In this document: positions 3,054 through 60,265 of the stretch, piece after piece
Layout: each line of letters starts with the position of its first letter
Numbering within the stretch: the stretch's first letter is position 1
Source of the DNA: a virus
IMG/VR virus record: IMGVR_UViG_3300042560_001826
Location: 32,001-96,000 of that record
Length of the DNA: 64,000 nt
Reading direction: 5' to 3' (one strand)
Made by a program: the position numbers and the translations under genes
The notes under the pieces: model-generated
Database searches by the model: none
Seen by the model: the letters and a program-made list of their open reading frames with translations, nothing else
Told to the model about the DNA's origin: nothing

Positions 3054-6000
3054 TGATTACAATTGATCAATATAGTAAAGACCTGTCCTCAGACTTTAAT
3101 ACAGCTATTGCCGCCAAAGCGCAAAAAATTAAGCCAAAAGTAGTGGTGACTTGGCTGGATAGTCGCCATCTGGATAACCTTGTCGTTACTACAAACAGTT
3201 CTCATGCAAATACATCGTACCCAGAAACCGGCTTCTATTTTTCAGCTTCAGAGGCTTTTAACGGGATTGAAAGGCAATCGTTTACATGGGGTGTAGCAGG
3301 CGCTAAGGACAGGGATGGCGATGTTATAAAGGCAGATGGCACTTGGCACACAATGCCATCTTTAATAACAACAGATCTCGCAAATACGCAGGTTGGCGGC
3401 AATTTAGAGTTCGGGTGGTGGTCGGCCAGTCAAAGCAATGCTTCTGTGCATGGCACATATTCTGGCTATGGATTTGTTACTGATCCATATATTGAGGCTA
3501 CTTTTACATCAAGAAAAGTTAATAAGATTAGAATTATTACATCTGAATACTATGGTCGGATAGCCAACTATACTATCTATGTTTATGATTCATCTAATAA
3601 TCTCGTCGTTTCATTTAGTGATTTAATACCAGCCAGTACATATTACAAGGATCATATTTTATCAGCAGCACTCTCTACACAGAATATAGCAAAAATAAGA
3701 GTCACTGTTCATAGTACTCGTAATCCATCTGATAATGCAAGAATTCAAGAAGTTATTCCACTTTATGAAGAGGATATGAGTGATTATGTAATTTCAATGT
3801 CTTTAAACAGAACTAGAGATATTCACGAGACAAGTTTACCTATTGGCGGGAGTGAAATGGGAACAGCGTCTGTTGAATTTGATAACACAACAAAAAAGTT
3901 TAATATCTTTGATAATAGCTCTCAATATGGTAAGTATTTAAAAAAGGAATTAAAAGTTGATATTTATTCTGGTTGGAGAATTAAAAAGCCATCTGATGAC
4001 TACATAGATAATATTTATCTTGATACATTTTTAACCGCTAATGCAAATTCAACAACAACAAGTTTAAGTGTAAATGATACATCAATATTTCCATCTGGTG
4101 GAGCTGGGAATCATTTTGTTGTAATTTTAGACAAAGATACACAATCTGAAGAATTGATTCTCTGCTCAGGCGTAACTTTGCCAAGCACCCTAAATGTCGT
4201 TCAGAGAGGGTATGCTGGCACAACTGCAAAATCCCATACTACTCAATCTTCTGTAAAATTTGAAGTTTATGAATATGTAAAAAATGGTACTTATTATATT
4301 GATGAATGGAATACAACATCTTCCTCAATGACAGTTGGTGCATCAATGCAAGACTGGACAAAGTATCTTGTTGAGAAGACAATTAAATACGGCTTCCTTT
4401 TACAAAATGCATATGTTGGAGATGCTGTTAAGAATTTATTGATGCGCTCCAATTTTCCACGAGCTGATATTGAAAAACTAAGTAAATATTCACAGGGTGC
4501 TATTGAAAGAGGTGCTATTGCTAGTTATTCATTTAAAGAAGAAACAATTGATAGAAGTGGAAATAATATTATTCCTTCAAATGGTCTTCGTGCAAGATTT
4601 TGGGGCATGCCATCAAATAAAAAAGACATATCTGTAAAAGATATTTTAGCTGATGCTCTTGATAGACAGCTAACTAAAATGGATCTAGCTCTTGGAGAAA
4701 CAAGATTTGTTAGCCCCTCATATGTTGCTCTATCTAAAAGTATATCTTCAAACTCATCTAACGCTATTCAATTGGTTGATTACTCATTCACTGGTGCCAA
4801 CGGCACCTCGTATTCAGATTATTATAATGGCGTTATTGATGGATATTATATTCCTTTAGCAAGCGGTAATCAAAATCTTGTTATATATATTACAGGCGGA
4901 GGTGTAAGATTATATCTTGATGATGCTTTGATTATAAATAAGTGGAATACTTATGAATCAAATACAAGATTGCAAAGTACAACAGTAAATCTTACCGCTG
5001 GAGTTCCAAGAAAAATAAGGCTAGAGTTTTATCACCCTTATAATAATGGCCCGACATCTAATTTTAGATTGGCTCTTTATAAAGTTGTTGGTGCTGGCGT
5101 TGATACACTTGTAACGGCAAATGAATGCACTACAATAGCAGCTTTTGATTCTATTGGTACAAAAAATGCTTCAAGCAACTTAACTGTTGCAGATGCATAT
5201 AATATGAGAAATAATGGCATTTATATAAATAATCCCAAGTTAAGTCAGCCAACTGGTTTAATATCTGAAACTCAAGATGGAGCCGTTTTATTAGAATCTA
5301 ATGCATATATTAGAATACCAATGCATGACAGTATTAATATTTCAAATGCAAATTCATCACTATATACTGGTAAATGGACAATTGAATTTTATGGGAAATT
5401 CAATACCGGTTCGTTTAGCTCAAATGGTGAATATATTAGCACTTGGGCTAATGGCACTCCAACAAGCGGATTTGAATTTTTTAACAATAGTTCGTCAAAC
5501 GGATTTAAAATAAGGACATTATCTAATTCTGTAGTAATTACAGAGACGGTTTCTTCAAATACTGCTCTTTCAAGTAACTCTTTTAATCACATAGTCGCAA
5601 CCTTTGATGGAACAAAGCTTTACTACTATGTAAATGGAGATCTCAAATCAAATACAACAATTGTTGGATCACAAATTGCTTTTGCTTCTGATATAACAAT
5701 CGGAGGTAGAGGAGCTTCATTTACTGCAAATGTTGGTGAAGTCGCACCATCAACCATAAGAACTTTCACCATTGACGAATTCCAAATTTATAATCAGACT
5801 CTCACACCTACTCAAATCAAAGATAGATATTCAGAATCTCAAATTCAGCCATTAACTAATTTTGCATTTTTGTATGGGAACAACTCTAGTTTAAAGCAAA
5901 TAATTGACGACATTACATTTGCAGATATCGGAAGGCTATATATTGATGAACTTGGAAAAGCAAAATATGAACATTTCTATAGATTCTTTGAAACATCAAT

Positions 6001-6985
6001 TGATCAGCATGCCAATGTTCAATCAACAATTAGTGATTCAACATATCTTATTGATGGCAGTTATACGGTGCAATTGCAATGTAATAAGGTAGATGTTCCT
6101 CTTTCTGGTCTGCAAAAAGCAATAGATGCAAAACAGGCTTTGTGGAATATTGATAATGATACAACAATTACAGCAGTTACATTATCTTCTAATATGACAG
6201 CCAATTCCAATGTTGCATATTATTCTTCAAATTCTGATATCCCATTCCCTAATGCTGGGTATATAAAAATTGGTAGCGAAATAATTAAATATAATTCAAA
6301 GACTGGTAATTCATTTAACAATCTTGAAAGAGGTCAGTTTCAAACAGCCGCAGCATCCCATATTATTAATGATGGCAACGGTTCAAAGATTAGAGAAGTT
6401 AAATACTTCAATGTCTCCTTCCAGAAAGCACCGGCTTTTAATGTTCAGACTCCATTTATAACTGCAATTAGAATAGATGAGCCAGATCTTCTTGAAATCC
6501 ATAAATATATCCCATACGCCTATGGTGCAGAACTAATAATTGCTGCGGCAAATACAGCTCCAGTAGAAAAGATAATAATGCTTGCTGGTGAAGATCGTGA
6601 AACGCGGTATCCATACGCAACATCAATTGCTGGCATCCCTGTTGAGATTTCTGAACAGAATTCTGATATTAAATCACAAACAGCATCTGTTGCTGAAAGC
6701 ATTAAAAAGTATGGAATTAAAGATGTTACAATTCAAAGTAATTTTATTAATGACGCAATTCATGCGCAAAGAATTGCTGATTTTATTATTTCCAAAACGC
6801 AAATACCAGTGGCTATTTTAAATGTTACGACAGTAATAATGCCAAAAGTACAACTAGGCGATAGAATAAGGATATCTAATTTTACAGCTCTCGGAATTAC
6901 AAATACCGATTATTGGGTGATATCATATAGTAGAACAATCGGTAGTAATTTTACTCAGCAGATGACTCTTAGGCAGGTTTCATAA
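3053..6985 (+). CDS. Large minor tail/baseplate protein with PA14-like and LamG/ConA-like domains
   Basis: 1310 aa; GGVRLYLDDALIINKW (PA14-like); HIVATFDGTKLYYYVNG...IDEFQIYNQTLT (LamG-like); C-terminal QLGDRIRI hub-like motif. Confidence 0.7.
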   Translation: MITIDQYSKDLSSDFNTAIAAKAQKIKPKVVVTWLDSRHLDNLVVTTNSSHANTSYPETGFYFSASEAFNGIERQSFTWGVAGAKDRDGDVIKADGTWHTMPSLITTDLANTQVGGNLEFGWWSASQSNASVHGTYSGYGFVTDPYIEATFTSRKVNKIRIITSEYYGRIANYTIYVYDSSNNLVVSFSDLIPASTYYKDHILSAALSTQNIAKIRVTVHSTRNPSDNARIQEVIPLYEEDMSDYVISMSLNRTRDIHETSLPIGGSEMGTASVEFDNTTKKFNIFDNSSQYGKYLKKELKVDIYSGWRIKKPSDDYIDNIYLDTFLTANANSTTTSLSVNDTSIFPSGGAGNHFVVILDKDTQSEELILCSGVTLPSTLNVVQRGYAGTTAKSHTTQSSVKFEVYEYVKNGTYYIDEWNTTSSSMTVGASMQDWTKYLVEKTIKYGFLLQNAYVGDAVKNLLMRSNFPRADIEKLSKYSQGAIERGAIASYSFKEETIDRSGNNIIPSNGLRARFWGMPSNKKDISVKDILADALDRQLTKMDLALGETRFVSPSYVALSKSISSNSSNAIQLVDYSFTGANGTSYSDYYNGVIDGYYIPLASGNQNLVIYITGGGVRLYLDDALIINKWNTYESNTRLQSTTVNLTAGVPRKIRLEFYHPYNNGPTSNFRLALYKVVGAGVDTLVTANECTTIAAFDSIGTKNASSNLTVADAYNMRNNGIYINNPKLSQPTGLISETQDGAVLLESNAYIRIPMHDSINISNANSSLYTGKWTIEFYGKFNTGSFSSNGEYISTWANGTPTSGFEFFNNSSSNGFKIRTLSNSVVITETVSSNTALSSNSFNHIVATFDGTKLYYYVNGDLKSNTTIVGSQIAFASDITIGGRGASFTANVGEVAPSTIRTFTIDEFQIYNQTLTPTQIKDRYSESQIQPLTNFAFLYGNNSSLKQIIDDITFADIGRLYIDELGKAKYEHFYRFFETSIDQHANVQSTISDSTYLIDGSYTVQLQCNKVDVPLSGLQKAIDAKQALWNIDNDTTITAVTLSSNMTANSNVAYYSSNSDIPFPNAGYIKIGSEIIKYNSKTGNSFNNLERGQFQTAAASHIINDGNGSKIREVKYFNVSFQKAPAFNVQTPFITAIRIDEPDLLEIHKYIPYAYGAELIIAAANTAPVEKIIMLAGEDRETRYPYATSIAGIPVEISEQNSDIKSQTASVAESIKKYGIKDVTIQSNFINDAIHAQRIADFIISKTQIPVAILNVTTVIMPKVQLGDRIRISNFTALGITNTDYWVISYSRTIGSNFTQQMTLRQVS

Positions 6986-8469
6986 TGATGAACGAATCAT
7001 CAATATATTTCTTTCCCGGTGGTGGACATAATCATGATGGTAATAACTCGTCATTAATTAACACATCCGCATATTCAATATTTGATTTTGATTTTGGAAA
7101 TATTGGTGGTCCCAACAGGGTTTATCGTCAAGAATTAAATCAAAATGGTTTTAAACAATTTATTATTGCAACTGTTAACTCTTCAATTCTTGAACCATCA
7201 GGTCTCGTTCTACAACCTGGCGTTGTAAATGGCAATGCTCATATTATTGCAGGCAGTGTAACTGGAAATGAAATATCGGCAAATACGATCACCGCAAATA
7301 ATATTGTTGCTGGAACAATTACAGCAAATCTTCTTTCAGCAAATATTGTTCTAGTTGATAATGTTATTAGAAGTAATAATTTTGATGGCACAATTGCTTC
7401 AAATGGAATTATTACATCTTCGGGGAATACTGGGTGGGCAATAACATGGGCCGGCGATGCGGTATTTGATAGCTCTGTAATTAGAGGATCAATTGTCGCA
7501 GCCTCGGTATCAACCCCTGGTGTTGATATATTTTCAAATGGTACATTGTCAGCAAACGCATTTACATTATATGGCAATGGTGCAATTGTAACATCATCTG
7601 GTAATTTCTCTGTAGATGCTAGCGGTAATCTTTCCGCAAATAATGCTGATATAACTGGAGAAATTAATGCAAACACTGGTGAGATTGGAAATTGGTCAAT
7701 AGGAGCGACATCACTTTCTTCTGCAGATGGCACTATATTCCTTTATAGTGATGGAACAGGTTCATCAATAGTTGTTGGTACTGGAGTATCTGATCAAATT
7801 GTTCTTAGTTCAGACGGAGATTTGTACTCTGTTCGCAATAATGTGCAGACAACAATAAATGGTGTTGCTGATGCTTATTACAGTATTCGGGTCATTGATA
7901 GTTCAACTCCATACACTACAAAAATCTCTCCGCAGTTAATTTCTTCCGTCTATGGAGGCTCTTTTTCTTTTCTTGCATATAACGAAATTTATTCAACTGG
8001 TGAAATCGGAATGGGAACTGGGAATGTAAATGGTATCGGAATAGCATATCCTGGATGTACAACTGGTCCCGGAACTGCAAATTACATGGGGCTCGTATGG
8101 GACAACCCAGATATTCGCGGCACAGTTGATAATGTTGTTTCTGCTGTTCTTGGAACTGTATCCGATATAAGGTTTAAAACAGACATATCAGATATTGGAG
8201 ATGAATATATTGATAAAATACTTAATGATATTAATATTATTCAATACACTCCTATTGATAAATTAAATAATGATAGATTAGGAGATACCCGTAGAGCTGG
8301 TATTATTGCTCAAGAAATAATTGACATATTTCCAGACCTTATTGATGGAGATTATAATAATCCAGATGCGTATTTATCTGTCAATTATGCTGGCTTTGTT
8401 CCATATCTGATAAAAACAATTCAATATCTTAATGATAAAATTAAAAAACTTGAGGAGAGTCAGAAATGA
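6985..8469 (+). CDS. Tail fibre/spike with C-terminal intramolecular chaperone (peptidase S74-like)
   Basis: ITANxIxAG repeats; SDIRFKTDI...GIIAQE...VNYAGFVPYLIKTIQ followed by a coiled coil. Confidence 0.8.
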   Translation: MMNESSIYFFPGGGHNHDGNNSSLINTSAYSIFDFDFGNIGGPNRVYRQELNQNGFKQFIIATVNSSILEPSGLVLQPGVVNGNAHIIAGSVTGNEISANTITANNIVAGTITANLLSANIVLVDNVIRSNNFDGTIASNGIITSSGNTGWAITWAGDAVFDSSVIRGSIVAASVSTPGVDIFSNGTLSANAFTLYGNGAIVTSSGNFSVDASGNLSANNADITGEINANTGEIGNWSIGATSLSSADGTIFLYSDGTGSSIVVGTGVSDQIVLSSDGDLYSVRNNVQTTINGVADAYYSIRVIDSSTPYTTKISPQLISSVYGGSFSFLAYNEIYSTGEIGMGTGNVNGIGIAYPGCTTGPGTANYMGLVWDNPDIRGTVDNVVSAVLGTVSDIRFKTDISDIGDEYIDKILNDINIIQYTPIDKLNNDRLGDTRRAGIIAQEIIDIFPDLIDGDYNNPDAYLSVNYAGFVPYLIKTIQYLNDKIKKLEESQK

Positions 8470-8654
8470 CAAAGAGTGATTTAGACAGTTATGTATTAAG
8501 TAATATGTCAAAATACACAACACTAAATGAGAGCAGGGCAAATCGTATATCTGGCATTATTTGGAGAGTTTATGAATTTGATTTAGTAGCAAAATCTGAC
8601 GCTGAGTGTCACATTTTGATTGATGAAATAATGAATAATATCTTTGATAATTGA
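8466..8654 (+). CDS. Hypothetical protein
   Basis: ATGA overlap with the upstream stop; GGAG RBS. Confidence 0.5.
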   Translation: MTKSDLDSYVLSNMSKYTTLNESRANRISGIIWRVYEFDLVAKSDAECHILIDEIMNNIFDN

Positions 8655-11877: not shown

Positions 11878-12166
11878 TCAAATATGGCAAAGATCTGCTG
11901 TTTGTCTCAGAGATAAAAATTCTTCGTATTGGTTATCATACAACATTGAGCATATAAAATATGCAAAAGAGGGTTGCAAGTCGTGTAGTGTAAAAACGGC
12001 ATGTCTTGCGAACGCTCTTAGTCAAGAGTTTTTTATTGGAGTAAACGCTGGCATCTCGGAATGGGATTATTTAAATAAAACATGGAAAGAGGTGAAAAGT
12101 GTCAGAAAAACCAACTGGTCAAGAAGTGATGCAACACTTCGTAAGCTGTTGCAAGAAGCGAAGTAA
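11861..12166 (+). CDS. whiB: WhiB-family transcription factor (copy 1)
   Basis: WQRSAVC...AKEGCKSCSVKTACL...GVNAG: four Cys plus a degenerate GVWGG turn; start moved to ATG 11861. Confidence 0.75.
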   Translation: MKNSHNQIWQRSAVCLRDKNSSYWLSYNIEHIKYAKEGCKSCSVKTACLANALSQEFFIGVNAGISEWDYLNKTWKEVKSVRKTNWSRSDATLRKLLQEAK

Positions 12167-28976: not shown

Positions 28977-29527
28977 TAGGAACCGAAATTGAGCCAGCAT
29001 CCAGAACAATTTTGGATGATCTAGCAGACATAGAGCAGGCCGGTCTCCTGCATGTAAAGGGGTATTCTAATCACGAAATTAGCTCCTTGATGAGTGTCTC
29101 TGCGGATAAAGCAAAAGGCATGATTACTGAATACAAGAAGATACTTAATCGTCAAGCTGAATCGGATCCGTATTTCTTAGAGAAAATCCAATTTAATACA
29201 ATCAAGGCTCTGCAAGAATTTGATCAATTGAGCAAAGAAGCTTGGGAGACTATTAATATTGCTACAGATCACGGCATGGTCCCGGCAAGAATTCAAGCTA
29301 TTAAATTAGCGGCAGAAGTTGCTACTAAGAAAGCGCAATTGCATAAGCTTATGGGTGGCAATCAAACAGACGGGCAATATATTGCTAGAATGCAGAAAGC
29401 AGAGAATGTTAATCAAATTCTTTCTAAAGTTTTAAGGGATGTTATTTCCAAGCATCCTCAGATTGCCGAAGAGGTCAGGAGAGAATTGGAAATTGCATTT
29501 GAAATCATGAATGATGGTGTTGAATAA
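28955..29527 (+). CDS. HTH protein, possible terminase small subunit
   Basis: GYSNHEISSLMSVS HTH; helical; last gene before terL. Confidence 0.5.
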   Translation: MSDIEPVVGTEIEPASRTILDDLADIEQAGLLHVKGYSNHEISSLMSVSADKAKGMITEYKKILNRQAESDPYFLEKIQFNTIKALQEFDQLSKEAWETINIATDHGMVPARIQAIKLAAEVATKKAQLHKLMGGNQTDGQYIARMQKAENVNQILSKVLRDVISKHPQIAEEVRRELEIAFEIMNDGVE

Positions 29528-29591
29528 AGAGACGGAAAAATTATCACATAAAGGTTTATGTAAAGAGACGGAAAAACTCTCACATAAAGGT
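29525..29591 (+). repeat. Two 31-bp direct repeats TAAAGAGACGGAAAAA(TTAT/CTCT)CACATAAAGGT
   Basis: 29525-29555 and 29561-29591, two mismatches. Confidence 0.9.
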
Positions 29592-29730
29592 GTAAACTCA
29601 CTTGTCTATGAGGTGATCCTGCTCTAAGCTTACAGCGGTGTAAGAATCCATATGTGTAAGATTACTCATTCGTAATCTTGTCGCCGCGTAAGTTTTCATA
29701 TTTCATAGTGTATACTATTAAGGGTGGCAA

Positions 29731-32985: not shown

Positions 32986-34201
32986 ATTAGGTTTTTTATA
33001 AAGCCCCTGTAGTGCTTTATAAAATATACTAAAATTTGCTAAAAAATTGGCTAAACGCCAGCGGTAACATTACATGGTCGTAATATTACTTGAGACCTTC
33101 GTTGTTTTTAGCTAATTCATTATATCGACTGGATCGACAAGCCGATCGTCAATTTTTAGCTAATCCTGGCGGTTATGCCTGGATCTTAACTAATAGATAA
33201 ATTGACCCATTGTTCGCACCTATTGCCGGATCCAAAAGAAATCTCAGAAATCTATATTTTGAGGTTTTTTCTTACCGATTCCCCTGATAGTGTGGTGGCA
33301 CAAATGACGACACATTATCTTACCAATAGATTGCCTATTGTGTACGGTATTGTGTCGTTATTTGTGTTGTATAAAAAATCAGATACGGGAAAGGATTAGG
33401 CTATGGATTTGTCTATTTTTGACGCTCTTATTGGGCTATCTATCAAAGATAATAAAACTGACTATGGCAAAGTAATGAAATTTGTCACGGTTAGCAAAGA
33501 TGATAAGACAGTAGTTTATGCTGTTCTTACATCTATTAGTGAAAGTGGTAAAAACAAAGCCATTACGCTCAAGTTTTTATCTGAGTTATTGGCTTCGCAA
33601 AAGATTTTCCTTCGTCGCAAAGATGACGGTAGGTTTTTTGTTGTTGCTTATCCAGAAGGTCACAAATACGCTAAGCGTGTGTTTTCTGGTAGGCGAGCGC
33701 ATAAGTATTCTATTTGTGGTATTGGTAGTATCAACAATAACGCAATGATTGGAGATGAGCGTATTGACATTACAAAACACGTCGCATCTAATGAAAGTAC
33801 AAAAGTAAGTGTCAAAAATATCAAAGAAAGGGCAAACTAATGACTAACGACACAAATCAAGTAATTGATTTTGCTGTAAAAGTATTTCGTTTTGATCATA
33901 CATATTATTATTCAGATGATTATGATGTATGGCGAAATGGAGAATCGGTAAAGAAAAGCCTTTGTGAAGAAGCTAAATCTATGAATTTGTCAGTTGGTGA
34001 CAAAATGCTTATGATTGAAGTATTCAAAACACTTTGGAATGACAATAGACATCGTGAAGATAGTGATAAATGGGAATTGATTGATGCTAATCATATTCAA
34101 TGGCCTTATAAAGCAAGTATGTATAACATTATTGGAATAACTGAACAAGATTATTTGTTTATTCCGGCCAGTAATCAATAGTTACGAGAAAGGTAACAAC
34201 A

Positions 34202-39022: not shown

Positions 39023-39352
39023 ATGAAAGCAGTGACTGATTATCAACAATTACTAATCAACATGAATGAATCATGGAGAAAAGATACTGTTTGCAGTAAA
39101 ACAAAAACGATTGATTGGTTTTCTGATGAAAAAGATCAAATCAAAATGGCAAAAGAGGCTTGTAGAAAATGCCCTGTTGCCGATAAATGTTTAGAGTTTG
39201 CTGTGCGGAATAAGGAAAGATTTGGTGTCTGGGGCGGGTTTACGCCAAGAGAAAGAAATAAAATTACTAGACATCTTGTTTCATTAACAAAGGAGGAAGC
39301 CAAAGATTTGGTGATCAAATATGGAAACCAAGTATTGTCTCAGACTAGTTAA
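39023..39352 (+). CDS. whiB: WhiB-family transcription factor (copy 2)
   Basis: WRKDTVC...AKEACRKCPVADKCLEFA...FGVWGGFTPRER. Confidence 0.9.
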   Translation: MKAVTDYQQLLINMNESWRKDTVCSKTKTIDWFSDEKDQIKMAKEACRKCPVADKCLEFAVRNKERFGVWGGFTPRERNKITRHLVSLTKEEAKDLVIKYGNQVLSQTS

Positions 39353-51360: not shown

Positions 51361-52368
51361 ATGACTAACTATACAAAACCGTCTTTTGACGAACTAGTGT
51401 TCGCATTTGATGAAATTGCAAAATATCGTGATGAGCAAATACTTGCAGATAATAATGATCTTGTGCGTTTGCCAAGCTGTTACATTATCTCTGGCTTTGA
51501 TGTTAATAATGAATATGTAATCAAAGAAAAGAAGCGCAATATTGAGCAAGATCTGCCAGAGGATATCCACGAGCATTTTGCTACGGTAAATAACAATGTT
51601 CTTGCTCTCAAAGATGTGAAGGCAAAAGATTATAATAAGGCTAACTTTGATAGTGTTATTTCATCTCTAGAAAGAGACGGGAAAGAGCATTTCAGAATGT
51701 CCGTATTTTTCGCTAACATCACTAGAAAAAGTTATGAACATGATTCTTTTGAACTTACTCCTGTAAGTGGAGAAAACGATTTTAGCGCTATATTTAACAA
51801 TGCAACATCAGAATTCAATTGCAATTCTGTTGCCTGTATTGCTGGTTTTGCTATTGCTGAAGCATCAGACTGGAGAATTAAAAGTCTGTACAAAAATATT
51901 GATCTTGCAGAAAACTATGTGGTTTTGAATCTTGCTGCAAATTATCTAAATATTCCACTATCTGTTGCTGAAAGCATATTCTATGCTAATGAGCATACAG
52001 TTTGGTCTTGGCTTAAAGCTCAACAATACTATGACTTTAGACATGGGGAATTAACTAAGCAATCAGAACAGGTTGATAGTCGCCTTAATAAGTTTAAAGA
52101 TATTGAGAGCTATCTTGATAAGTTTGGAGATGTTGATTTTGATCAAGATTACTTCTACTCTTGTGAAGAATATGGTTATGAACAAGATACTTTCTGGGAA
52201 AATTGTGGCATTGATATGGTTACGATTACTTGGAAAGAAGCAGTAGCACTTATGACTCTCATTAGAGATGAGATTATTGTGCTAGATAGAAAGTTTCCTG
52301 GTAAGCTTTTGGGTTCAGTTCCATCTTGGAATTCAGAAAAAATTAGCGAATTACAGGCTAGTAAATAA
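51361..52368 (+). CDS. Hypothetical protein, paralogue of 48050-48805
   Basis: HFRMSVF...FNCNSVACIAGFA...YLNIPL. Confidence 0.65.
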   Translation: MTNYTKPSFDELVFAFDEIAKYRDEQILADNNDLVRLPSCYIISGFDVNNEYVIKEKKRNIEQDLPEDIHEHFATVNNNVLALKDVKAKDYNKANFDSVISSLERDGKEHFRMSVFFANITRKSYEHDSFELTPVSGENDFSAIFNNATSEFNCNSVACIAGFAIAEASDWRIKSLYKNIDLAENYVVLNLAANYLNIPLSVAESIFYANEHTVWSWLKAQQYYDFRHGELTKQSEQVDSRLNKFKDIESYLDKFGDVDFDQDYFYSCEEYGYEQDTFWENCGIDMVTITWKEAVALMTLIRDEIIVLDRKFPGKLLGSVPSWNSEKISELQASK

Positions 52369-52642: not shown

Positions 52643-53586
52643 CCAAAGTGGCCAGAAAACGCACTACGGAAGCGTACAAGGCTTTTTAAGTGCCAATGTG
52701 GTCGGGAATTGATTAATATCTATTTATAAGAACTGGAGAGAGATAAAGAATAAAAGCGGGTCTTAATTATCTTTCAGTATAGAGATAGAGAATCTATAGA
52801 GAGACTAGAGAATGAATAAGGCTGCGTCTACCTGAAATAAGTAGGATATGTCCCTTAGAAAATGTTGTGTTACGTCCCACAGTAAAGAGGCGAAAAGCGC
52901 GCAAATATTACGGTATTTTTATTAAATACTATGGTGTTTTATAAAATATAGGGCAAAAAGCCCTTAAAATGCATGAAAAAGCTTCACTTTTGCACAAGCT
53001 GGTATAAATATGTATGTATCTATCTCTCTATAGGTATAAAGAGACATTTAAACCCCGCCATAAAGGTATCCAGGAGATAAAAGAATGGGTAATAGATAAA
53101 TTCATTATAAATTAGTTCACTAATGAACTTATAGAACTTATCATTAAACTTCTCATAGAACTGATCATTGAATTCAGGCGGGAATAAGCCTACTGATTAC
53201 AGCACTGTAATTTGTAAGGAGCTAGACTAACCTTTGCCCCGGCAAAAAGAGACGGTAATGGATCCGTCATAAAGGTATTACTTTTTGTAAATCATTACAT
53301 AATAAAAAAGGTGATTTTTTTTATGTACTCTAAGTAATATTACGATGGTAATGTTACCAACCGTAATATTACACCTGGCAGATCACCTGACTTCGTTAGG
53401 GAATGGATCGACAAAAGGCTAAAACAAATCCTGGGCGATAAGATCGTCAAATATATCTTTTTTATATTTCTTTCAGGTAAGGTTGGTTTTTTTTAGATCA
53501 GCCGATAGCGTGAGTGTATCGGTTGCGAAACTGATGAAATAAATAAAAAAATAAAAAAATCAACAAAAAAGGAAAAAGGTAAAACA

Positions 53587-53907
53587 ATGGCTACGGAAAA
53601 GAATGACGATTTTGAAATCGTCAATGAAGCGGATTTGGAATTCGCTTCTCGTGGAAGAAAATCAAACATTAGCGATAGCGAAATCGCTAAGGTAAAAGAA
53701 ACATTGAAGAAAAATCCAAATGGTTGGGTTTTGTTCAATGGTAAGGCTATTCCTAATGGAATGACTAACGCTAAGGATATTCGTAACCATAAGGCTGCGA
53801 ATTCCGCAACGCTTAGGGCATTGGCTAAGAAATTGGGAATGAAAGCAGAAATTCGTTGGCATAAGGGAACTGTTCCAGCAGTTCGCTTTTCTAAGGTTTC
53901 TGCTTAG
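53587..53907 (+). CDS. Small basic protein, family A
   Basis: FEIVNEADLEFASRGRKS...LRALAKKLGMKAEIRW..GTVP; AAAGGT RBS. Confidence 0.8.
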   Translation: MATEKNDDFEIVNEADLEFASRGRKSNISDSEIAKVKETLKKNPNGWVLFNGKAIPNGMTNAKDIRNHKAANSATLRALAKKLGMKAEIRWHKGTVPAVRFSKVSA

Positions 53908-53938
53908 TAATTAGACAATAGTTTTCGCAACTGTTAGG

Positions 53939-53974
53939 GAATGGGTGGGGTAAAACCCACCCATTCTTTTTTTT
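53939..53974 (+). terminator. Rho-independent terminator
   Basis: GAATGGGTGGG-GTAAAA-CCCACCCATTC followed by a T run. Confidence 0.9.
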
Positions 53975-54435
53975 ATTTGTGTCGATCCCGGAATAAAGAT
54001 AAAGAATTACGTTACCGTAATCTTACAGATCCGCATTAGTGATTACATAAAGGATCTTCCAGGGATAAAGAAATAGATTAGAAAAATGCTTACTAAATTA
54101 TTTAGGTACGGTGTAATATTACCACGGTCGTAATGTTACAAAATTCTAACATTACACCCGCCCCGTAATATTACTTACTAAGTAAGATTACATAAAGGCT
54201 TACATAAAGGTAATATTTTATATAAAAGAAATGCTTACTCAAATGCTAAAAGAAGTCATGTAATGTTACCAGCCGTAATATTACCGAACTCCGGTCGAAA
54301 AAAAAACCTGGGCTTACGGCTGTGTAAGCTTTGACTTGGTGAGAGCCAAACTTACACAGCCGTAAGACACCTTCTGTTGCCCCGCCTAGTTAGGGCGGCG
54401 ATGGTCAATAATCCATCGGGGACGATTCACCTAAG

Positions 54436-54738
54436 TTACTTAGACGTAACGAGACGAACGGTAGGAACACCGTCGGTGGTGAAGGCAATGCGCACCTTCA
54501 CGCCGACAGACTTCGCGCATGCCCTGAGCATCGCGCTCACGGCAGCCTTGCGAGTCTTCGCGTTCGTACCCTTCGGGTCAACCTTGTACGAAGGCAGAGC
54601 CAAAACTTTCCCAGCGGGAAGTTTAGCGATAGCCTGCGCAAGCTTCGGGTCGGCGTTTGACTTGCGTCCACGCTTAGCGAAACTAAGGTCGCTCTCGTTC
54701 ACGATCTCGAACTCGGGTGTATCGTTGGTCTTAGCCAA
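54436..54738 (-). CDS. Small basic protein, family A
   Basis: FEIVNESDLSFAKRGRKS...LRACAKSVGVKVRIAF..DGVP; AAGGAG RBS, TTG start. Confidence 0.8.
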   Translation of the reverse strand: MAKTNDTPEFEIVNESDLSFAKRGRKSNADPKLAQAIAKLPAGKVLALPSYKVDPKGTNAKTRKAAVSAMLRACAKSVGVKVRIAFTTDGVPTVRLVTSK

Positions 54739-55346
54739 ACGTTACTCCTTTGTAAGAAAAGGTTACGGGTATGGATTAGACAGTAGTACCACTACTGCCC
54801 GACGCTGTAAGTTTTGATCTAGTGTGTTCGTTACCTTACACACGGGTAGGATTCGCTGACTGCCTACCTTCCCAAACTTACCGCCGTGTAACGGTAGTGC
54901 GACACCTGAACCTAGCCGAAGTGATCCCGAAGGATCACCGTTGCTCGCCCCGTAATTTTACGGGACCGCCTACTAGGTGACTCAGGTACGGGTCAACGCA
55001 CCGATAAGGATTCTAACAGATGATCGGCAAAAGCGGGCGGATAGTAAAACGGCTCAAATAAAAGACTACTGAATAGGTCGATAATAGGGTAAAGATAAAG
55101 TCCGGCGGCCCTGTAATCTTACAATTAGACTTTGATAAAGTTCCAGGACCGTAATCTTACATTGGAAAAATGTATTAAACTAATCTTACATAAGTGTAAT
55201 GTTACTGCGGGCGTAATCTTACGGTGAGTAAGGTTAACGCCCGCGTAATCTTACGCTAGTAATATTACATAGAGAAAATAAAAAAAATAAGTCGATAGCG
55301 CCGGGGCTCTTGCGAACCCCGACGCTACCTACTTGGCTTGGGGGAG

Positions 55347-55631
55347 TTAGTCTGCCAAGATGACTTGTGGCGTACCGTTGGCACTCCAACGGATCGCAAC
55401 CTTCTTGCCTGCCTGCTTGCCTGCCTGACGGATTTGGGCAGATACCTTAGCCTTCTCCGTCTTAGCCTTCGGACTGTTGGGGTTCACGGTCATTCCCGTG
55501 AGTTTCAGTCCTTGACCCTTCTTGAGCTTGGAAATTGCGCCTACGAGGGCAGGGCTCACGGTGGACTTACGCCCACGCTTGGAAAATTCCAAGTCCTGCT
55601 CGGAGACAATCTCAAAATTGTCTGTTGCCAT
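55347..55631 (-). CDS. Small basic protein, family A
   Basis: FEIVSEQDLEFSKRGRKS...IRQAGKQAGKKVAIRW..NGTP; hairpin terminator near 55296-55328. Confidence 0.8.
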   Translation of the reverse strand: MATDNFEIVSEQDLEFSKRGRKSTVSPALVGAISKLKKGQGLKLTGMTVNPNSPKAKTEKAKVSAQIRQAGKQAGKKVAIRWSANGTPQVILAD

Positions 55632-55821
55632 TGTTGTGGTATTCCCTTCTGAGCCTTACTTAGATTTGGGGCTCCGTTGTTGTTTAGAACACTATCCAAT
55701 AGGGGAAAACGACGCAAGTATGCGAACAGTCAAAAAACGCTGTATTTATTGGGGTTTTTGAGTGTGTGTCGTGAGTCACACGGTAGAAAAATGGAGATTT
55801 CCATAAATTACACGACCCTAC

Positions 55822-55835
55822 CGAACAAGTGTTTG
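55822..55835. promoter_or_regulatory. LexA (SOS) box CGAACAAGTGTTTG
   Basis: Matches CGAACRNRYGTTYG; upstream of the 55631 gene. Confidence 0.6.
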
Positions 55836-56044
55836 GTGAGGTATTGTGAGATTAGATCCCATAAACTTTCTTGTGTGTAAAATTACATTTACGAAAGAGT
55901 ACTAAATTTTTATTACATGTCAGTAATGTTACAGAGGGTGTAAGTTTTAGTCCCCCCAAAACTTACACCCTTCGTAATATTACCTAGATGAGCTATAAAA
56001 TTACACGGGCCGGTAAGCCCGTGTAACTTTACTGCCGTGTAATA

Positions 56045-56416
56045 CTAGGCTGTTGCCAAAACGCTAATGGCTTGGCGTATCGGATACCCATTCTGGATAA
56101 ATTGGTGGCGTATATCAACAGGCACCTGTGTAAGTTTACGCATCGCCTCATCTTGGGCATTTACGAGGGTAAGCATTTCCGCCAAATATTCCATAGCGGT
56201 ATGATTAGAAACTAACGGTAAACCGTGTTCGGTCATTTCCGCGAGCTTATCTAACGCGCCTGTAATTTTATCGGAGAGGTCATCACCGATTTCCTCGCGC
56301 CCGATTTCCAGAATGATACCGAGGTCGTGGAATATTAGGGATCGTGTTCTCGTAGCTTTACTAGTGAGAATTACGCCTTCCGCAAATCGTTCTTCGTTCA
56401 TTATTTTTTCCTCCAT
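56045..56416 (-). CDS. Hypothetical protein (stand-alone cassette)
   Basis: 123 aa; likely GGAGG RBS for ATG 56401; hairpins downstream. Confidence 0.55.
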   Translation of the reverse strand: MEEKIMNEERFAEGVILTSKATRTRSLIFHDLGIILEIGREEIGDDLSDKITGALDKLAEMTEHGLPLVSNHTAMEYLAEMLTLVNAQDEAMRKLTQVPVDIRHQFIQNGYPIRQAISVLATA

Positions 56417-56717
56417 AGTTCTTCGTAAAACGCTCGCCTCTTTTGTTGCCAGCGTGTAATTTTTGGGTGGATAATAAATGCTATTATTACTGACAGTAGG
56501 AATATCTTGATATTGGTCATACTTCCATTTTACAAAACTTACACAACCAATACAAGGATCACATTTTCCATAAAGGGTAAGGCCTAGTAATCTTACACAC
56601 TAAAAGAATGAGGCTTAGTAATATTACACCTGCCATACCGGTGCTCCATAAAGATCTAATTATGTAATATTACTGAGCTGTAATAATTGTTGCTAATGGT
56701 AAGATTACGCGATCACG

Positions 56718-56731
56718 CGAACAAATGTTTG
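56718..56731. promoter_or_regulatory. LexA (SOS) box CGAACAAATGTTTG
   Basis: Matches CGAACRNRYGTTYG; upstream of the TGTATGCT -10 element of the 56823 gene. Confidence 0.6.
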
Positions 56732-56822
56732 GTCGGCCGGTGATCGTCGATCGTGCCTATTGTTGCGATCGTGTATGCTTACTATGTCGGCAATTCCGCC
56801 GACACTCACGAAAGGCAAGGCA

Positions 56823-57239
56823 ATGAAGGCAAAGGCAAAAGCGTTCGCAAAGGCGATGAGTGTTCTCATCGGTAATGCGAACAAGGTACGCGCCAAAAAA
56901 GGCGTGAAGCGTATCTACGACAGCGCGGTACTCAATACCGCTATTGGTACGGCACTACAAAAAGGCGTTTTGCCAAAAGGCGAGAACGCTCGCCTATGGT
57001 GCTTCGCAAATGATGCCGTTGTTGTAGATGTTCGGACTATCGTTCACGAAAACATCGGTGATGAAGCATCGCACGAACGACCCGAAAATACTGTTCGTGC
57101 GAGACTCATCACGCTTGCGAAACTAAACAAAGACATCACGAAGCTTGCCTATGTTCGTTATCTCACGAACGGTACGCCTAGTGCCGATGATGCGAACAAC
57201 GACGACGCTTACAAAGTTTTCATTTTCCGTAAGCGTTAG
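56823..57239 (+). CDS. Basic protein, family B
   Basis: AKKGVKRIY...RPENTVRARLI...AYKVFIFRKR; GAAAGG RBS. Confidence 0.8.
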   Translation: MKAKAKAFAKAMSVLIGNANKVRAKKGVKRIYDSAVLNTAIGTALQKGVLPKGENARLWCFANDAVVVDVRTIVHENIGDEASHERPENTVRARLITLAKLNKDITKLAYVRYLTNGTPSADDANNDDAYKVFIFRKR

Positions 57240-57251
57240 AAACAAAAAGAG

Positions 57252-57284
57252 TGACGGGGCGGAAACGCCCCGTCATTTTTTTTT
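57252..57284 (+). terminator. Rho-independent terminator
   Basis: TGACGGGGCG-GAAA-CGCCCCGTCA followed by a T run. Confidence 0.9.
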
Positions 57285-57555
57285 GTATCCGTTTAGTCGA
57301 GTAGCCCGGACTAATTAGATTTCGTTCCATAAAAGGTACACGCTTGTAAGATTACAAAATCGTACTGAATTTTTATGCATAATGCTGCATGATTATGCGG
57401 GTGCGTCTCTACGCAAAGCTGTGAGCTCCACCCGCGTAATCTTACACCGTAAAGGGTTAGCTTTGTAATGTTACACAGCATGACTTGCATCGACTAATAG
57501 ATCGTGTAGACTATTGGTATCGGCAATCCTGCCGATCATCACGAAAGGTTACACA

Positions 57556-57762
57556 ATGTCCACATTTGAAACACACGACGAGATAATCCAGAAGGTTCGT
57601 ACCTTCTATCGGGAGACCTACAACATGTCCGAATCAGCCCTGCCATGCCATAACTGCATGTTTGAGCAAGAGCCAGACACCGAATGTGGCTATGTCTGGA
57701 TAACCTGCGAAGCCGACAACATGAATAATGATTCAGACGGTTGCAATTGGGGTAATGTTTAG
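57556..57762 (+). CDS. 68-aa Cys-rich acidic protein (stand-alone cassette)
   Basis: TTGCAT-16-TAGACT promoter, shared leader hairpin, GAAAGG RBS, terminator near 57779-57812. Confidence 0.7.
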   Translation: MSTFETHDEIIQKVRTFYRETYNMSESALPCHNCMFEQEPDTECGYVWITCEADNMNNDSDGCNWGNV

Positions 57763-58006
57763 TTACAACTAAGTAAGTAAAGCCCGGTCCTAACCCCCTG
57801 GGGCCGGGCTTTATTTATTATTACCTTATAGTAATCTTACCTATAATGATCTCCATAAAGATAATGAATACTAAACTTACTTATTAGTAATGTTACACGC
57901 CAACCGTAACATTACCGGGCTATCGGTTGCCCCGGTCGATCAAGGGTAGAAAGAGAAAGAACCCCACCTACCCTTTCGGGTAAGTGGGGTTCTTGTGTTC
58001 TGTTCG

Positions 58007-58525
58007 CTACTTCGTGCGAACGATAAACACTTTCTCGCACTCATTAGTCACGCCGTTCTCAAGCCATGACTCTTGAGCCATTCGTGCATCAACGGCCCAG
58101 ATAACGGTGAGATCGCCCAGAATGAGCTTACTCTTCTGCCAACTGATGAGCCTTGCACGAACGGCATTGTCGGCACGGTAGTTCGTAGCCTTACTGCACA
58201 CTTCGCTACGAAGAACGAACGGCACTTCGTTCTGGAGACAGAACTTCAGAAGTTGTGCTTTGCTCTTCTTGACGGGTTCGCCGTTCGCATCAACAGTCCA
58301 TGTCTCAAGAACGGGTTTCGTTGATGCAATAGAAACTGCTCGCATCAGAAGTTCAGCACCGTCATTCGTTGAGAATGGCTTTACTCTCTTCTTCTTATTC
58401 TTCTCATTGCAAGAAGAAAGTTTCTCAACGGACTTCTGAAAGAGTCCCGACGCTTTCGCGCCGAAAGACTGAACTTCTTTCTTTCTACCTTTCGCTACTT
58501 TCGTAGCCTTTCTCTTCTTCGCCAT
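58007..58525 (-). CDS. Basic protein, family B
   Basis: KKKRVKPF...RADNAVRARLI...EKVFIVRTK; terminator near 57957-57993. Confidence 0.8.
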   Translation of the reverse strand: MAKKRKATKVAKGRKKEVQSFGAKASGLFQKSVEKLSSCNEKNKKKRVKPFSTNDGAELLMRAVSIASTKPVLETWTVDANGEPVKKSKAQLLKFCLQNEVPFVLRSEVCSKATNYRADNAVRARLISWQKSKLILGDLTVIWAVDARMAQESWLENGVTNECEKVFIVRTK

Positions 58526-58835
58526 TGTGCTCTTACCTTTCGTGATAGTGGGCCGAATTGCCCACTAGTAGAAGTGTAACAGAACTAGGTGAGATTACAA
58601 CGATCCAATTTCTGCATTACAATTCACACTCATGCATGATCATGCATAAATGATTAGGAAATCACACTAAATTGTAATCTTACATGCATAATTATTCAGC
58701 GGGTGCGTCAGAAACGCGAAGCTGTCTGCTCCACCCGCCGTAACATTACGCCGTAAAGGGTTAGATCTAGTAACATTACACGGAAGTAAGGTAATAAAAA
58801 CCCCGCCCGGTTTTTAATCGAGCGGGGTTCTTTTA

Positions 58836-58937
58836 TTACTTGCGATTGCGGAAGTAAGCTAAAACGCTTACGCTGAACACAACAGCAAGAATGAGCGAGT
58901 AAGAAACATACTCACTAATGTTGAGGGTAAGTTGCAT
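58836..58937 (-). CDS. 33-aa single-pass membrane peptide (not in the ORF track)
   Basis: MQLTLNISEYVSYSLILAVVFSVSVLAYFRNRK; GAAAGGAG RBS; terminator near 58793-58837. Confidence 0.7.
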   Translation of the reverse strand: MQLTLNISEYVSYSLILAVVFSVSVLAYFRNRK

Positions 58938-59210
58938 TGTGATCTCCTTTCTTACTATCCAGCCTACAAACATTACACAGATAATACAAGCACCTATTAC
59001 CTCATAAAGTGTAAGGTATCGTAATATTACTCATTAAAAATGAGACACTCATAGACTCTAATAGCGTTGGTGGCGTAATGTTACACACACTAAAAATGAG
59101 AGAGGGATCTGTGTAAGGTTACTTGGTGTGTGCCCCGGTCGATCGGGCCGGGGGTACATAGCAGAACCCCCACCCCTTGCGGGGTGGGGGCTTGCGGGGG
59201 ATTGGGGGTG

Positions 59211-59660
59211 CTACTTGGTCTTGCGGTAGAGCAGAACCTCGTAGGCTTGGGGGTTCTTGGGATCAATCGCAGGGTTCCCCTTGCCATTGACTAGCACCCT
59301 CAGATAGCCCACCTTGCCGACCTGACTATCTACCTTGGTGAGGCTCAGTAGTCGGGCGTTGATGGTGAGGTCAGGTCGCTTGAATAGGTTCGGGGTGAGG
59401 TGGCGCACTACCTGACGGACATCCACCCTGACGGTATGCGGGCTAGTGCGTACCTCGTGCTTGGTGATAGCGGGCAGGCTCAGGGCTTGGGCTACTGCGG
59501 TGAGCAGATAGTTAGCACCCTTATCCTCGTAGTGACGCTTGACCCCACGCTTGGCGTTGAGGTCACGCTTGGCGGTGCGCTTGGCGGTAAGGGTGCGCAT
59601 AGTCTGCGTCACCTTAGCCTTGCTCACCCCCTTGCGGTTGGTCTTGGTCTTGGTTGCCAT
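59211..59660 (-). CDS. Basic protein, family B
   Basis: AKRGVKRHY...RPDLTINARLL...AYEVLLYRKTK; GAGAGG RBS; terminator near 59167-59190. Confidence 0.8.
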   Translation of the reverse strand: MATKTKTNRKGVSKAKVTQTMRTLTAKRTAKRDLNAKRGVKRHYEDKGANYLLTAVAQALSLPAITKHEVRTSPHTVRVDVRQVVRHLTPNLFKRPDLTINARLLSLTKVDSQVGKVGYLRVLVNGKGNPAIDPKNPQAYEVLLYRKTK

Positions 59661-59885
59661 TGGTACTGCCTCTCTGTGCTTGGGCTTGGCGGGATGCCTC
59701 ACCTCGTTGATAACTACCTTAGCCGATACCTAGCCCTATTCCTACCTCGTAGCCTTACCTCGCAAGATTACCTATCCGACAGAATTACCCTAAAACCCTT
59801 ATTCTATGCGGGTTCTAGCGTCGATCCTATGACGAAACTAATCGTTACCTAATCGTAACATAACAGATCACCCTATTGACCCCCC

Positions 59886-59899
59886 CGAACACAGGTTCG
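59886..59899. promoter_or_regulatory. LexA (SOS) box CGAACACAGGTTCG
   Basis: Perfect CGAAC-N4-GTTCG palindrome in the divergent intergenic region. Confidence 0.7.
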
Positions 59900-59973
59900 C
59901 CCTAGGGGTTAGATATAGCATAACCCTGCATAGAAATATACTAAAATTTTTGATACAATGGCGCGGAATGGCT

Positions 59974-60018
59974 TTCTAATGAAATTGCTTCTAATGAAAT
60001 TACTTCTAATGAAATTGC
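59974..60018 (+). repeat. Tandem repeat, 3 x 15 bp TTCTAATGAAATT(G/A)C
   Basis: Read directly. Confidence 0.95.
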
Positions 60019-60247
60019 CGGGAATAATTGCCGGGGTTAACTCTTCTCAGACAAAGGCGGGGTTGGATAGACCTATCTCGCTGGTAGTGGTGGGCGAGAT
60101 AGGCGCTCACAAAACCGGGATCTCCGGATCGGGATCACCGGTTGGAGCAACCCCGTAACAAGGAATCCGGGGTTATCGGGCGTAACTATAACGGTCCCAA
60201 GGTATTGGGATGCCCGATGGAAACTATTTCACATAAATAATTTCCGG
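60018..60247 (+). ncRNA. Candidate structured ncRNA carrying 16S and 23S rRNA motifs
   Basis: Four consecutive hairpins; 23/24 match to the 23S H69 region at 60181-60204; 16S motif CGTAACAAGG at 60154-60163. Confidence 0.6.
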
Positions 60248-60265
60248 GATTTATTCTACCAGATA

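Follow-up and report, generated by a model that had tools for sequence, protein, structure and literature searches.

The viral record IMGVR_UViG_3300042560_001826 of IMG/VR is 105,121 bp long and is rated complete by CheckV. We analyzed bases 32001-96000 of this record, a stretch of 64,000 nt that we call the window and to which the positions below refer. The subject of this study is an island at 53040-59900, in which nine stand-alone genes alternate with ten spacers and a 10-bp palindrome, GTAA-NN-TTAC, is found in dense clusters. The island lies between a long plus-strand gene block on one side and a minus-strand block of tRNA and auxiliary genes on the other, and its GC content is 0.44-0.52 compared with about 0.35 elsewhere. 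This rise is carried by the genes (GC up to 0.59; GC at third codon positions, GC3, up to 0.75), whereas the spacers have a GC content of 0.42. An earlier reading of the sequence alone (hereafter, the original prediction) had called the spacers AT-rich; they are AT-richer only than the island genes (0.40-0.59) and are not so in comparison with the genome as a whole (about 0.35).

The phage is a siphovirus with genes for a tape measure protein, portal, protease, and capsid. The ends of the record fall between the portal and protease genes and so are assembly breaks at arbitrary positions. The closest cultured phages are the Streptomyces phages of the Stanwilliamsviridae (capsid 49% identical, DnaE-like polymerase 38%). 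WhiB is a hallmark of actinobacteria and actinophages, and two WhiB-like genes (Pfam PF02467) at 11885-12061 and 39074-39262 (E = 8e-11 and 1e-20, both above the Pfam cut-off) indicate that the host is an actinobacterium. Low GC content, the auxiliary genes (S-adenosylmethionine decarboxylase and 2-oxoglutarate [2OG] oxygenase), and the whiB-encoding freshwater actinophages described in the literature suggest a low-GC aquatic (freshwater) actinobacterium. For comparison we used eight related IMG/VR loci (including L005, L006, L007, L009, and L012), the cultured Streptomyces phage Jay2Jay (L016; cluster BE1, Stanwilliamsviridae), 50,697 deposited phage records, 185,579 bacterial species genomes, and 1.84 billion protein representatives.

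The open reading frame (ORF) map confirmed nine genes in mixed orientation, six of which belong to two paralogous families of basic proteins, A and B, as had been predicted. At the left, palindrome cluster S1 (53334-53372; three palindromes spaced 14 and 15 bp) is located 215 bp upstream of A1 (53587-53907, plus strand), which encodes a basic family A protein of 106 amino acids (isoelectric point [pI] 10.0; GC 0.40) and is followed by a terminator at 53936-53969. S1 is fully kept in L005. Cluster S2 (54017-54284), with seven palindromes and three CATAAAGG boxes, separates A1 from the convergent gene A2 (54436-54738, minus strand; family A, 100 amino acids, TTG start, GC 0.56; terminator hairpin at 54312-54366). 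Upstream of A2 and downstream of A3 is S3 (54952-55268), which holds seven palindromes and GATAAAG boxes at 55094 and 55134. A3 (55347-55631, minus strand; family A, 94 amino acids, GC 0.54; terminator at 55294-55329) is in turn preceded by S4 (55877-56032; four palindromes). The next gene, which is absent from L005, encodes an acidic protein of 123 amino acids (56045-56416, minus strand; pI 4.9). Between it and the divergent B1 (56823-57239, plus strand; basic, family B, 138 amino acids, pI 10.0) is S5 (56569-56708), with four palindromes and two CATAAAG boxes, each 17-18 bp before one of them.

In the right part of the island, S6 (57346-57474; three palindromes) precedes orf68 (57556-57762, plus strand), which encodes an acidic, cysteine-rich protein of 68 amino acids (pI 4.1) and is conserved in L005 and L006. 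S7 (57831-57915; three palindromes and a CATAAAG box at 57854) lies between orf68 and the convergent B2 (58007-58525, minus strand; family B, 172 amino acids, pI 10.0; terminator at 57957-57994), and S8 (58674-58779; three palindromes) lies upstream of B2. A putative small hydrophobic ORF of 33-45 codons with a strong Shine-Dalgarno sequence (58836-58973, minus strand) has S9 (59003-59122; three palindromes, with a CATAAAG box 18 bp before one) upstream of it. S9 is also downstream of B3 (59211-59660, minus strand; family B, 149 amino acids, pI 11.0, GC 0.59, GC3 0.75), the sole island gene without an upstream palindrome. The original prediction gave most of these genes a promoter-like element and a terminator of their own. 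Terminator-like hairpins were indeed enriched in the island (19, compared with 6.8 +/- 2.4 expected), whereas sigma-70-type promoter matches were not (10, compared with 10.9 expected). An Rfam scan over the island returned only sub-threshold, terminator-driven matches.

The pattern GTAANNTTAC matched 43 times in the window, compared with 1.0 +/- 0.97 times in dinucleotide-preserving shuffles (maximum 4). The whole genome also contains 43 copies of GTAA-NN-TTAC and a single copy of a reversed control pattern. Thirty-eight copies (88%) are inside 53334-59122, that is, in one island of 6.6 kb or about 6% of the genome, so that the motif is not equally frequent genome-wide and the earlier hand count of about 38 was exact. 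Of the 43 copies, 41 are intergenic; one island copy (56130) is within the 123-amino-acid gene. Five copies are outside the island, where only three, all intergenic, had been noticed. Three of the five (29656, 33064, and 33080) are indeed intergenic, and the other two (6945 and 8835) are in coding sequence and look like chance occurrences.

The palindrome has the consensus GTAAT-N-TTAC, with three roughly equal types of center (TA, 10; TC/GA, 12; TG/CA, 11) and weak preference in the flanking bases. Many copies form tight pairs at distances of 14-19 bp from start to start, a slightly wider range than the 14-17 bp first given. We rejected these pairs as -35 and -10 elements of sigma-70 promoters, because the implied spacers would be about 5 bp and not 17 bp. 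Single half-sites (GTAA/TTAC) are also concentrated, with 39 per kb in the spacers compared with 9 per kb in island coding sequence, a four-fold difference. A literature search for GTAATATTAC gave nothing relevant.

Eight of the nine island genes, B3 being the exception, have a palindrome 48-250 bp upstream of the start codon, a relation not mentioned in the original prediction. The distance from the nearest upstream palindrome is 215 bp for A1, 214 bp for A2, 246 bp for A3, 171 bp for the 123-amino-acid gene, 115 bp for B1, 82 bp for orf68, 149 bp for B2, and 48 bp for the small ORF. The intergenic copies outside the island are at the starts of two operons. Upstream of terL, at 29526-29665 on the plus strand, two tandem AAGAGACGG-N12-CATAAAGG boxes are followed by GTAAGATTAC; at 33064-33089, a pair 16 bp apart follows a terminator at the head of the small-gene operon of 33.4-52.6 kb. 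Palindromes upstream of nearly all island genes, with further copies at two outside operon starts, point to transcriptional control, and the layout relative to the genes is the pattern of a regulon. The motif also has the properties of an operator-type site, being a short palindrome that is over-represented, intergenic, and kept in position in relatives.

A second signal, CATAAAG(G), had been missed in the original prediction. The genome has 11 intergenic copies, all of them on the plus strand: two upstream of terL and nine within the island or at its edge. When six islands were oriented alike, the strand count was 58 plus to 3 minus. The distance from CATAAAG to the start of the next palindrome is preferentially 16-18, 31-33, or 65-67 bp, and in many cases the box and a half-site are merged (TTAC-ATAAAGG). 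Strand-specific word counts revealed TACTAAA as a further polar word. Two CATAAAG-type elements at the left island edge are kept in four lineages. CATAAAG-type boxes are upstream of the plus-strand genes (A1, B1, orf68), and none was seen upstream of the minus-strand genes.

Clusters S2, S7, and S9 share a common grammar: CATAAAG, palindromes, CCGGTCGA, and then the terminator hairpin of the neighboring gene. On the plus strand, CCGGTCGA occurs at only three places in the genome (54291, 57932, 59135), each time located between a cluster's last palindrome and the terminator hairpin of A2, B2, or B3, all of which are minus-strand genes. S2 and S7 are conserved and non-coding, with no ORF of at least 33 amino acids and no Rfam family. 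We considered whether S2, S7, and S9 form one small-RNA family and rejected the idea: the modules (CATAAAG, ACTAAA, palindromes, CCGGTCGA, hairpin) are common to them, but no alignment as a single RNA was obtained.

The leader of B1 (56787-56822, plus strand) consists of a hairpin, TCGGC-aattcc-GCCGA, followed by TCACGAAAGG-N7-ATG. Equivalent leaders precede orf68 (57519-57555) and B2 (58526-58565, minus strand), and the hairpin with its CAAT loop is common to B1, orf68, B2, and their orthologues. Among these paralogues and orthologues the stem is TCGGC/GCCGA, GTGGGC/GCCCAC, GTGAGC/GCTCAC, or GTAGGGC/GCCCTAC. Such compensatory changes indicate that the leader hairpin is a real RNA element, which probably acts in mRNA stability or translational control.

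The array is conserved among relatives. All eight related loci carry 16-38 palindromes clustered beside family A or B genes, and in two near-complete relatives the genome has 24 and 20 copies, of which 21 and 18, respectively, are in the island. No relative lacks the palindrome, even at protein identities as low as about 30%. Its half-sites are invariant, and the preferred center changes with the lineage (AC/GT in L007 and L009; TA and AA/TT in L012); the spacing of tight pairs is exactly 16 bp in these three loci. Orthologous spacers align at 71-77% identity, as well as the genes do. Within the spacers, the eight specified palindrome positions are 79% conserved, compared with 57% for other spacer columns (Fisher p = 3e-12), and the CATAAAG columns are 90% conserved compared with the same 57% (p = 3e-8). 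We conclude that the array is real, conserved, and under selection.

The genes are likewise kept in order and orientation in L005, L006, L007, L009, and L012, to about 50% protein identity. From the left, the conserved order is a p335-like gene (plus), three palindromes, A1 (plus), a cluster, A2 (minus), a cluster, A3 (minus), and, further on, B1 (plus); the right part runs from B1 through B3 (minus) to a ferredoxin-like gene (minus) and a 2OG oxygenase gene (minus). L005 differs in the absence of the 123-amino-acid gene and B2 and in orf68, which is moved and inverted. The base composition of the paralogues is also conserved: in three lineages the GC content of A1 is 0.35-0.40 and that of B3 is 0.58-0.63 (GC3 0.74-0.79). 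The difference follows the orthologue and not the genome, and is therefore old. The minus-strand paralogues are GC-rich and the plus-strand paralogues AT-richer, a split that may reflect early and late isoforms tuned to the tRNA pools of host and phage. Because both CATAAAG boxes and AT-richness are on the plus-strand genes, we infer that there may be two temporal classes. The gene for a 335-amino-acid protein left of the island (51361-52368) has three tandem paralogues in L005 (positions 4134-8592 of that locus). The start of the L007 contig was considered as a physical genome end and rejected, since L009 continues through that point.

The members of family A (A1, A2, A3) are 38-47% identical to each other and those of family B (B1, B2, B3) 33-35%, and all six have a pI of 10-11. 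Both families occur only on metagenomic and viral contigs, often on the same contig. A profile search with family A among the 1.84 billion representatives gave only 122 clusters, all of single-domain proteins of 47-155 amino acids. In the bacterial species genomes, no relative of family A turned up in a pattern search; among the deposited phage records, tblastn with A2 and B1 gave no match and a search with the island DNA gave only a chance match of 40 bp. Profile searches against PDB sequences gave nothing for A and only noise for B, a profile-profile comparison detected no relation between A and B, and a search for family B fusions among longer proteins yielded none, which is weak evidence. 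A protein atlas gave no usable lead.

The structural model of family A (predicted local distance difference test [pLDDT] score 77) has a poorly ordered N-terminal stretch with an invariant RGRKS, followed by an alpha/beta domain in which one helix has a conserved basic face. The AlphaFold model of family B (pLDDT 95) consists of a long N-terminal helix rich in lysine and alanine and an alpha/beta domain; the most conserved segment of the family is RP-N-VRARL. Foldseek found nothing in the PDB for either model, and the best Z scores in a wide structural search were 6.1 (A) and 4.4 (B). The PUS7 insertion domain, the Stn1 winged helix, RepE, and IF3-C/R3H-like domains appeared in both lists and were rejected as too weak for a fold assignment. 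As A and B are basic and apparently highly expressed, binding of nucleic acid, DNA or RNA, is a plausible function to propose from their sequences. Both families are candidates for the protein that binds the palindrome, and a host factor is equally possible. The dedicated protein-DNA system of the original prediction is borne out as a general inference, the signal being island-specific, conserved in relatives, and conserved in position; no known family or fold was recognized in A or B.

The genome position of the island was compared with that of the terminal repeat of Jay2Jay. In Jay2Jay the first and last 11,438 bases are identical. The terminal repeats of T5 and SPO1 hold the host-takeover genes that are expressed first. 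The Jay2Jay repeat was determined as about 10.8-11 kb by read starts and two-fold coverage, and repeats of this type were compared in size with those of T5 and SPO1 (PMC5764925). The gene order of Jay2Jay is a plus-strand right arm, the repeat, a minus-strand block (tRNA, glycosyltransferases), and then glycosyltransferase, ribonucleotide reductase, portal, protease, and capsid genes. That of the studied genome is a plus-strand block, the island, a minus-strand block with tRNAs, and then glycosyltransferase, ribonucleotide reductase, and portal, followed across the ends of the record by protease and capsid. The matching order places the island in the slot of the Jay2Jay repeat, the syntenic position of a Stanwilliamsviridae-like terminal repeat.

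The two regions are alike in other respects. The Jay2Jay repeat has a raised GC content (0.55 compared with 0.48 in the rest of the genome), small genes with their own terminators (CCCCGAAGGG hairpins, nine compared with none elsewhere), and a region-specific motif, there CCCGGACA (13 copies compared with none in 24 kb sampled elsewhere). A region-specific motif and raised GC content may be a general feature of such terminal repeats. On the other hand, Jay2Jay has no GTAA-NN-TTAC and no homologue of family A or B (best match among its left-end ORFs, E = 0.11), its repeat encodes Lsr2-like and ParB-like proteins, of which none was found in the studied phage, and it is 11.4 kb long compared with about 6.6 kb for the island, whose terminal position would follow from synteny. 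Of the options offered by the original prediction, a terminal-repeat or first-injected region is the best supported, by synteny, although the gene content of BE1 repeats is not shared and no Lsr2 domain was found in the genome.

Several further features were observed around the right edge of the island. The sequence CGAAC-N4-GTTCG is present at two places in the window (59886-59899 and 51390-51403), compared with 0.01 expected, and matches the LexA (SOS/Cheo) box known from actinobacteria and Gram-positive bacteria. The copy at 59886 is within a block, TTGACCCCCCCGAACA-N-AGGTTCGCC, that is conserved in L005 and L006, and GAAC-N4-GTTC is found at the same place in a relative of 95 kb. This copy is upstream of B3, the gene without a palindrome, and SOS control of B3 or of the neighboring non-coding region is possible. 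At 59974-60018, TTCTAATGAAATTGC is repeated three times in tandem; L006 has a single copy of this 15-mer and L005 has none. The following stretch, 60020-60250, is GC-rich, hairpin-rich, and non-coding, is conserved in L006 and partly in L005, and has a promoter-like TAGAAA-N17-TACAAT with an upstream TG directed into it. A non-coding RNA or a repeat boundary may be located at 59974-60250.

The explanation we favor, to which we give an even chance, is that the island is an early or terminal-repeat-equivalent module in which the palindromes serve as operators of a dimeric regulator. It would be a host-takeover-type module of a lytic siphovirus of Actinobacteria, probably freshwater ones, situated at the genome position that the long direct terminal repeat has in the nearest cultured relatives. 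Each small gene would be a transcription unit of its own, with leader, Shine-Dalgarno sequence, and terminator. One dimeric DNA-binding protein would recognize GTAA-NN-TTAC and switch all cassettes together, along with terL and the operon starting at 33 kb; sites about 16 bp apart would place neighboring dimers on opposite faces of the helix. CATAAAG(G), located 16-18 bp before many palindromes, would be a directional, promoter-like part for rightward transcripts, and a palindrome at or just after the transcription start would be in a repressing position. Protein binding, the transcriptional effect, and early expression or terminal repetition are all read here from the arrangement of the DNA.

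A number of observations weigh against this explanation. The -10 pattern of actinobacteria is TANNNT, and CATAAAG does not fit this sigma-A consensus. The box also points rightward even beside leftward genes, where as a promoter it would give antisense or orphan transcripts, and sigma-70-type promoters are not enriched, as mentioned above. S2 and S7, with 13 of the 38 island copies, sit between convergent genes, where no annotated gene could be controlled by them. Scans of all island proteins against Pfam, PHROGs, and NCBIfam gave nothing above threshold and no DNA-binding domain, and a few six-frame searches of the genome found no sigma-70 region 2 or region 4 domain, no Lsr2, and no known regulator family. 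A site spacing of 16 bp is unusual for repressors that cooperate on the same face of the helix. Finally, synteny alone suggests terminal-repeat and early status.

Some of these observations would be accounted for if the array were structural. Basic A and/or B proteins would nucleate on the palindromes, coat the region, and form a nucleoprotein domain at or near the genome end, which could act as a cap that protects the end, as a handle of the centromere type, or as a signal for packaging or for a pause in injection. We regard this main rival as possible but doubtful. S2 and S7 are conserved between convergent genes, where promoters make little sense; three paralogues each of two abundant-looking basic proteins with strong Shine-Dalgarno sequences are encoded within the array; the invariant RGRKS in the disordered N-terminal stretch of family A is AT-hook-like; and the syntenic Jay2Jay repeat encodes Lsr2-like and ParB-like DNA binders. 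CATAAAG and AAGAGACGG boxes just upstream of terL are at a common place for terminase recognition sites, and the single polarity of all boxes suits a signal read from a DNA end. However, the structural searches gave no DNA-binding fold for A or B, and their best hits are partly folds of RNA-binding type; most clusters precede a gene start, and the outlying copies an operon. General scans turned up no partition ATPase, for which no specific search was made, and no ParA- or ParB-like protein was among the approximately 40 proteins scanned, a dedicated six-frame search not having been made. A further reading, which we consider rather improbable, is that A and B are a new phage-encoded chromatin that nucleates on the palindrome clusters at the terminal region of the injected genome. 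In this reading, A2, A3, B2, and B3 (GC-rich, minus strand) would be made early with host-like codon usage, A1 and B1 (AT-rich, plus strand, behind CATAAAG as is terL) would be made later with phage tRNAs, and the domain would serve both to shield the genome end and to set the timing of transcription. It is also improbable, to a similar degree, that the palindromes are bidirectional -10 elements for the host sigma-A polymerase, possibly redirected by WhiB, with the clusters as banks of strong early promoters. TAANNT within GTAA-NN-TTAC does fit TANNNT on both strands, genes leave the clusters in both directions, and the phage has two WhiB-like sigma-A-binding factors with no sigma factor of its own found; T5 and SPO1, the comparators in PMC5764925, have early terminal-repeat regions that are dense in strong promoters. 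Yet a -10 hexamer needs neither strict symmetry nor the invariant outer G and C, the distance from the last perfect palindrome to the start codon is variable and long (48-250 nt), degenerate TANNNT sites nearer the leader hairpins are better -10 candidates for B1 and orf68, and promoters paired at 14-19 bp would occlude each other.

Readings of the array as a decoy, as recombination sites, or as an origin are unlikely. That the replicated sites titrate a dimeric regulator or nucleoid protein of the host with high affinity seems very improbable to us. A high copy number in a small region would suit such a sponge, and half-sites that stay constant while the center dinucleotide drifts across lineages fit a conserved host protein, but no host genome or host regulator with a GTAA-NN-TTAC site is known, the literature search on the motif returned nothing of relevance, and a sponge would not need a fixed arrangement relative to CATAAAG boxes and gene starts. 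Cassette shuffling or capture at the palindromes as sites of recombination or insertion, as in integrons or the PeSL (promoter plus hairpin) elements of T4-type phages, is suggested by the stand-alone genes in mixed orientation, by paralogues of very different GC content (0.40 to 0.59), by a motif cluster at the left side of every gene whatever its direction, and by the two absent genes and the moved, inverted orf68 of L005. The conserved order and orientation of A1, A2, A3, B1, B3, and the ferredoxin-like gene nevertheless argues against active shuffling, a possibility raised in the original prediction; the GC difference is old, and no recombinase was seen among the proteins scanned near the island. 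We consider this reading most unlikely. The same holds for a replication origin with the palindromes as iterons. The rise of the cumulative GC skew ends at the island, and origins typically have repeated protein-binding sites, but the skew change coincides with the switch of gene strand, the sites extend over 6 kb and are interleaved with nine genes instead of lying within a few hundred bp, and there is no initiator gene nearby, the replication genes being 35-45 kb away.

Returning to an operator array in an early module, we compared the island with known systems. The stoperators of cluster A mycobacteriophages are reportedly sites for the L5 repressor gp71 that act on transcription. As in the island, dozens of copies of one short site are present in short intergenic regions of an actinophage, in excess of what promoters need. 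Stoperators are asymmetric 13-bp sites distributed genome-wide and oriented with transcription, whereas the island has a 10-bp palindrome with 88% of copies in one stretch of 6.6 kb; the oriented element is the stoperator itself in L5 and a separate CATAAAG box in the studied phage. L5-type phages are temperate and the repressor is identified, whereas in the studied phage no repressor or integrase was identified. The terminal-repeat modules of SPO1, T5, and Twort-like phages consist of small, individually promoted and terminated genes at the genome end that are expressed first. The island shares the small self-terminated genes and has no protein homology to them, and early timing would here follow by analogy. 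SPO1 encodes TF1, a DNA-binding protein with preferred sites in the terminal-repeat region, and we know of no 10-bp palindrome that forms a comparable array of some 40 copies in SPO1, T5, or Twort-like phages. PeSL cassettes in the hyperplastic regions of T4-type phages and integron attC arrays also have stand-alone small ORFs flanked by repeated elements. Their content and order vary between close relatives, whereas order and orientation are conserved in the island, and PeSL (a promoter and a hairpin) and attC (60-140 bp) differ from the 10-bp palindrome of the island, where no integrase was identified. By analogy, the island resembles the early terminal-repeat modules of T5, SPO1, and BE1 phages and the multi-copy operator sets of the L5 type; the motif, the geometry, and the proteins are different.

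Freshwater Actinobacteria of low GC content rank with the most abundant lake bacteria, and to our knowledge almost nothing is known of how their large lytic phages control infection. The island appears to be a conserved regulatory code composed of a 10-bp palindrome, a polar CATAAAGG box, a covarying leader hairpin, and two orphan families of basic proteins. Since the protein families and DNA motifs always travel together, a few experiments might reveal what both do. Should the island be a terminal repeat, the early strategy of T5, SPO1, and BE1 phages would extend to uncultured aquatic actinophages, and islands of this kind would help to place genome ends in metagenome assemblies.

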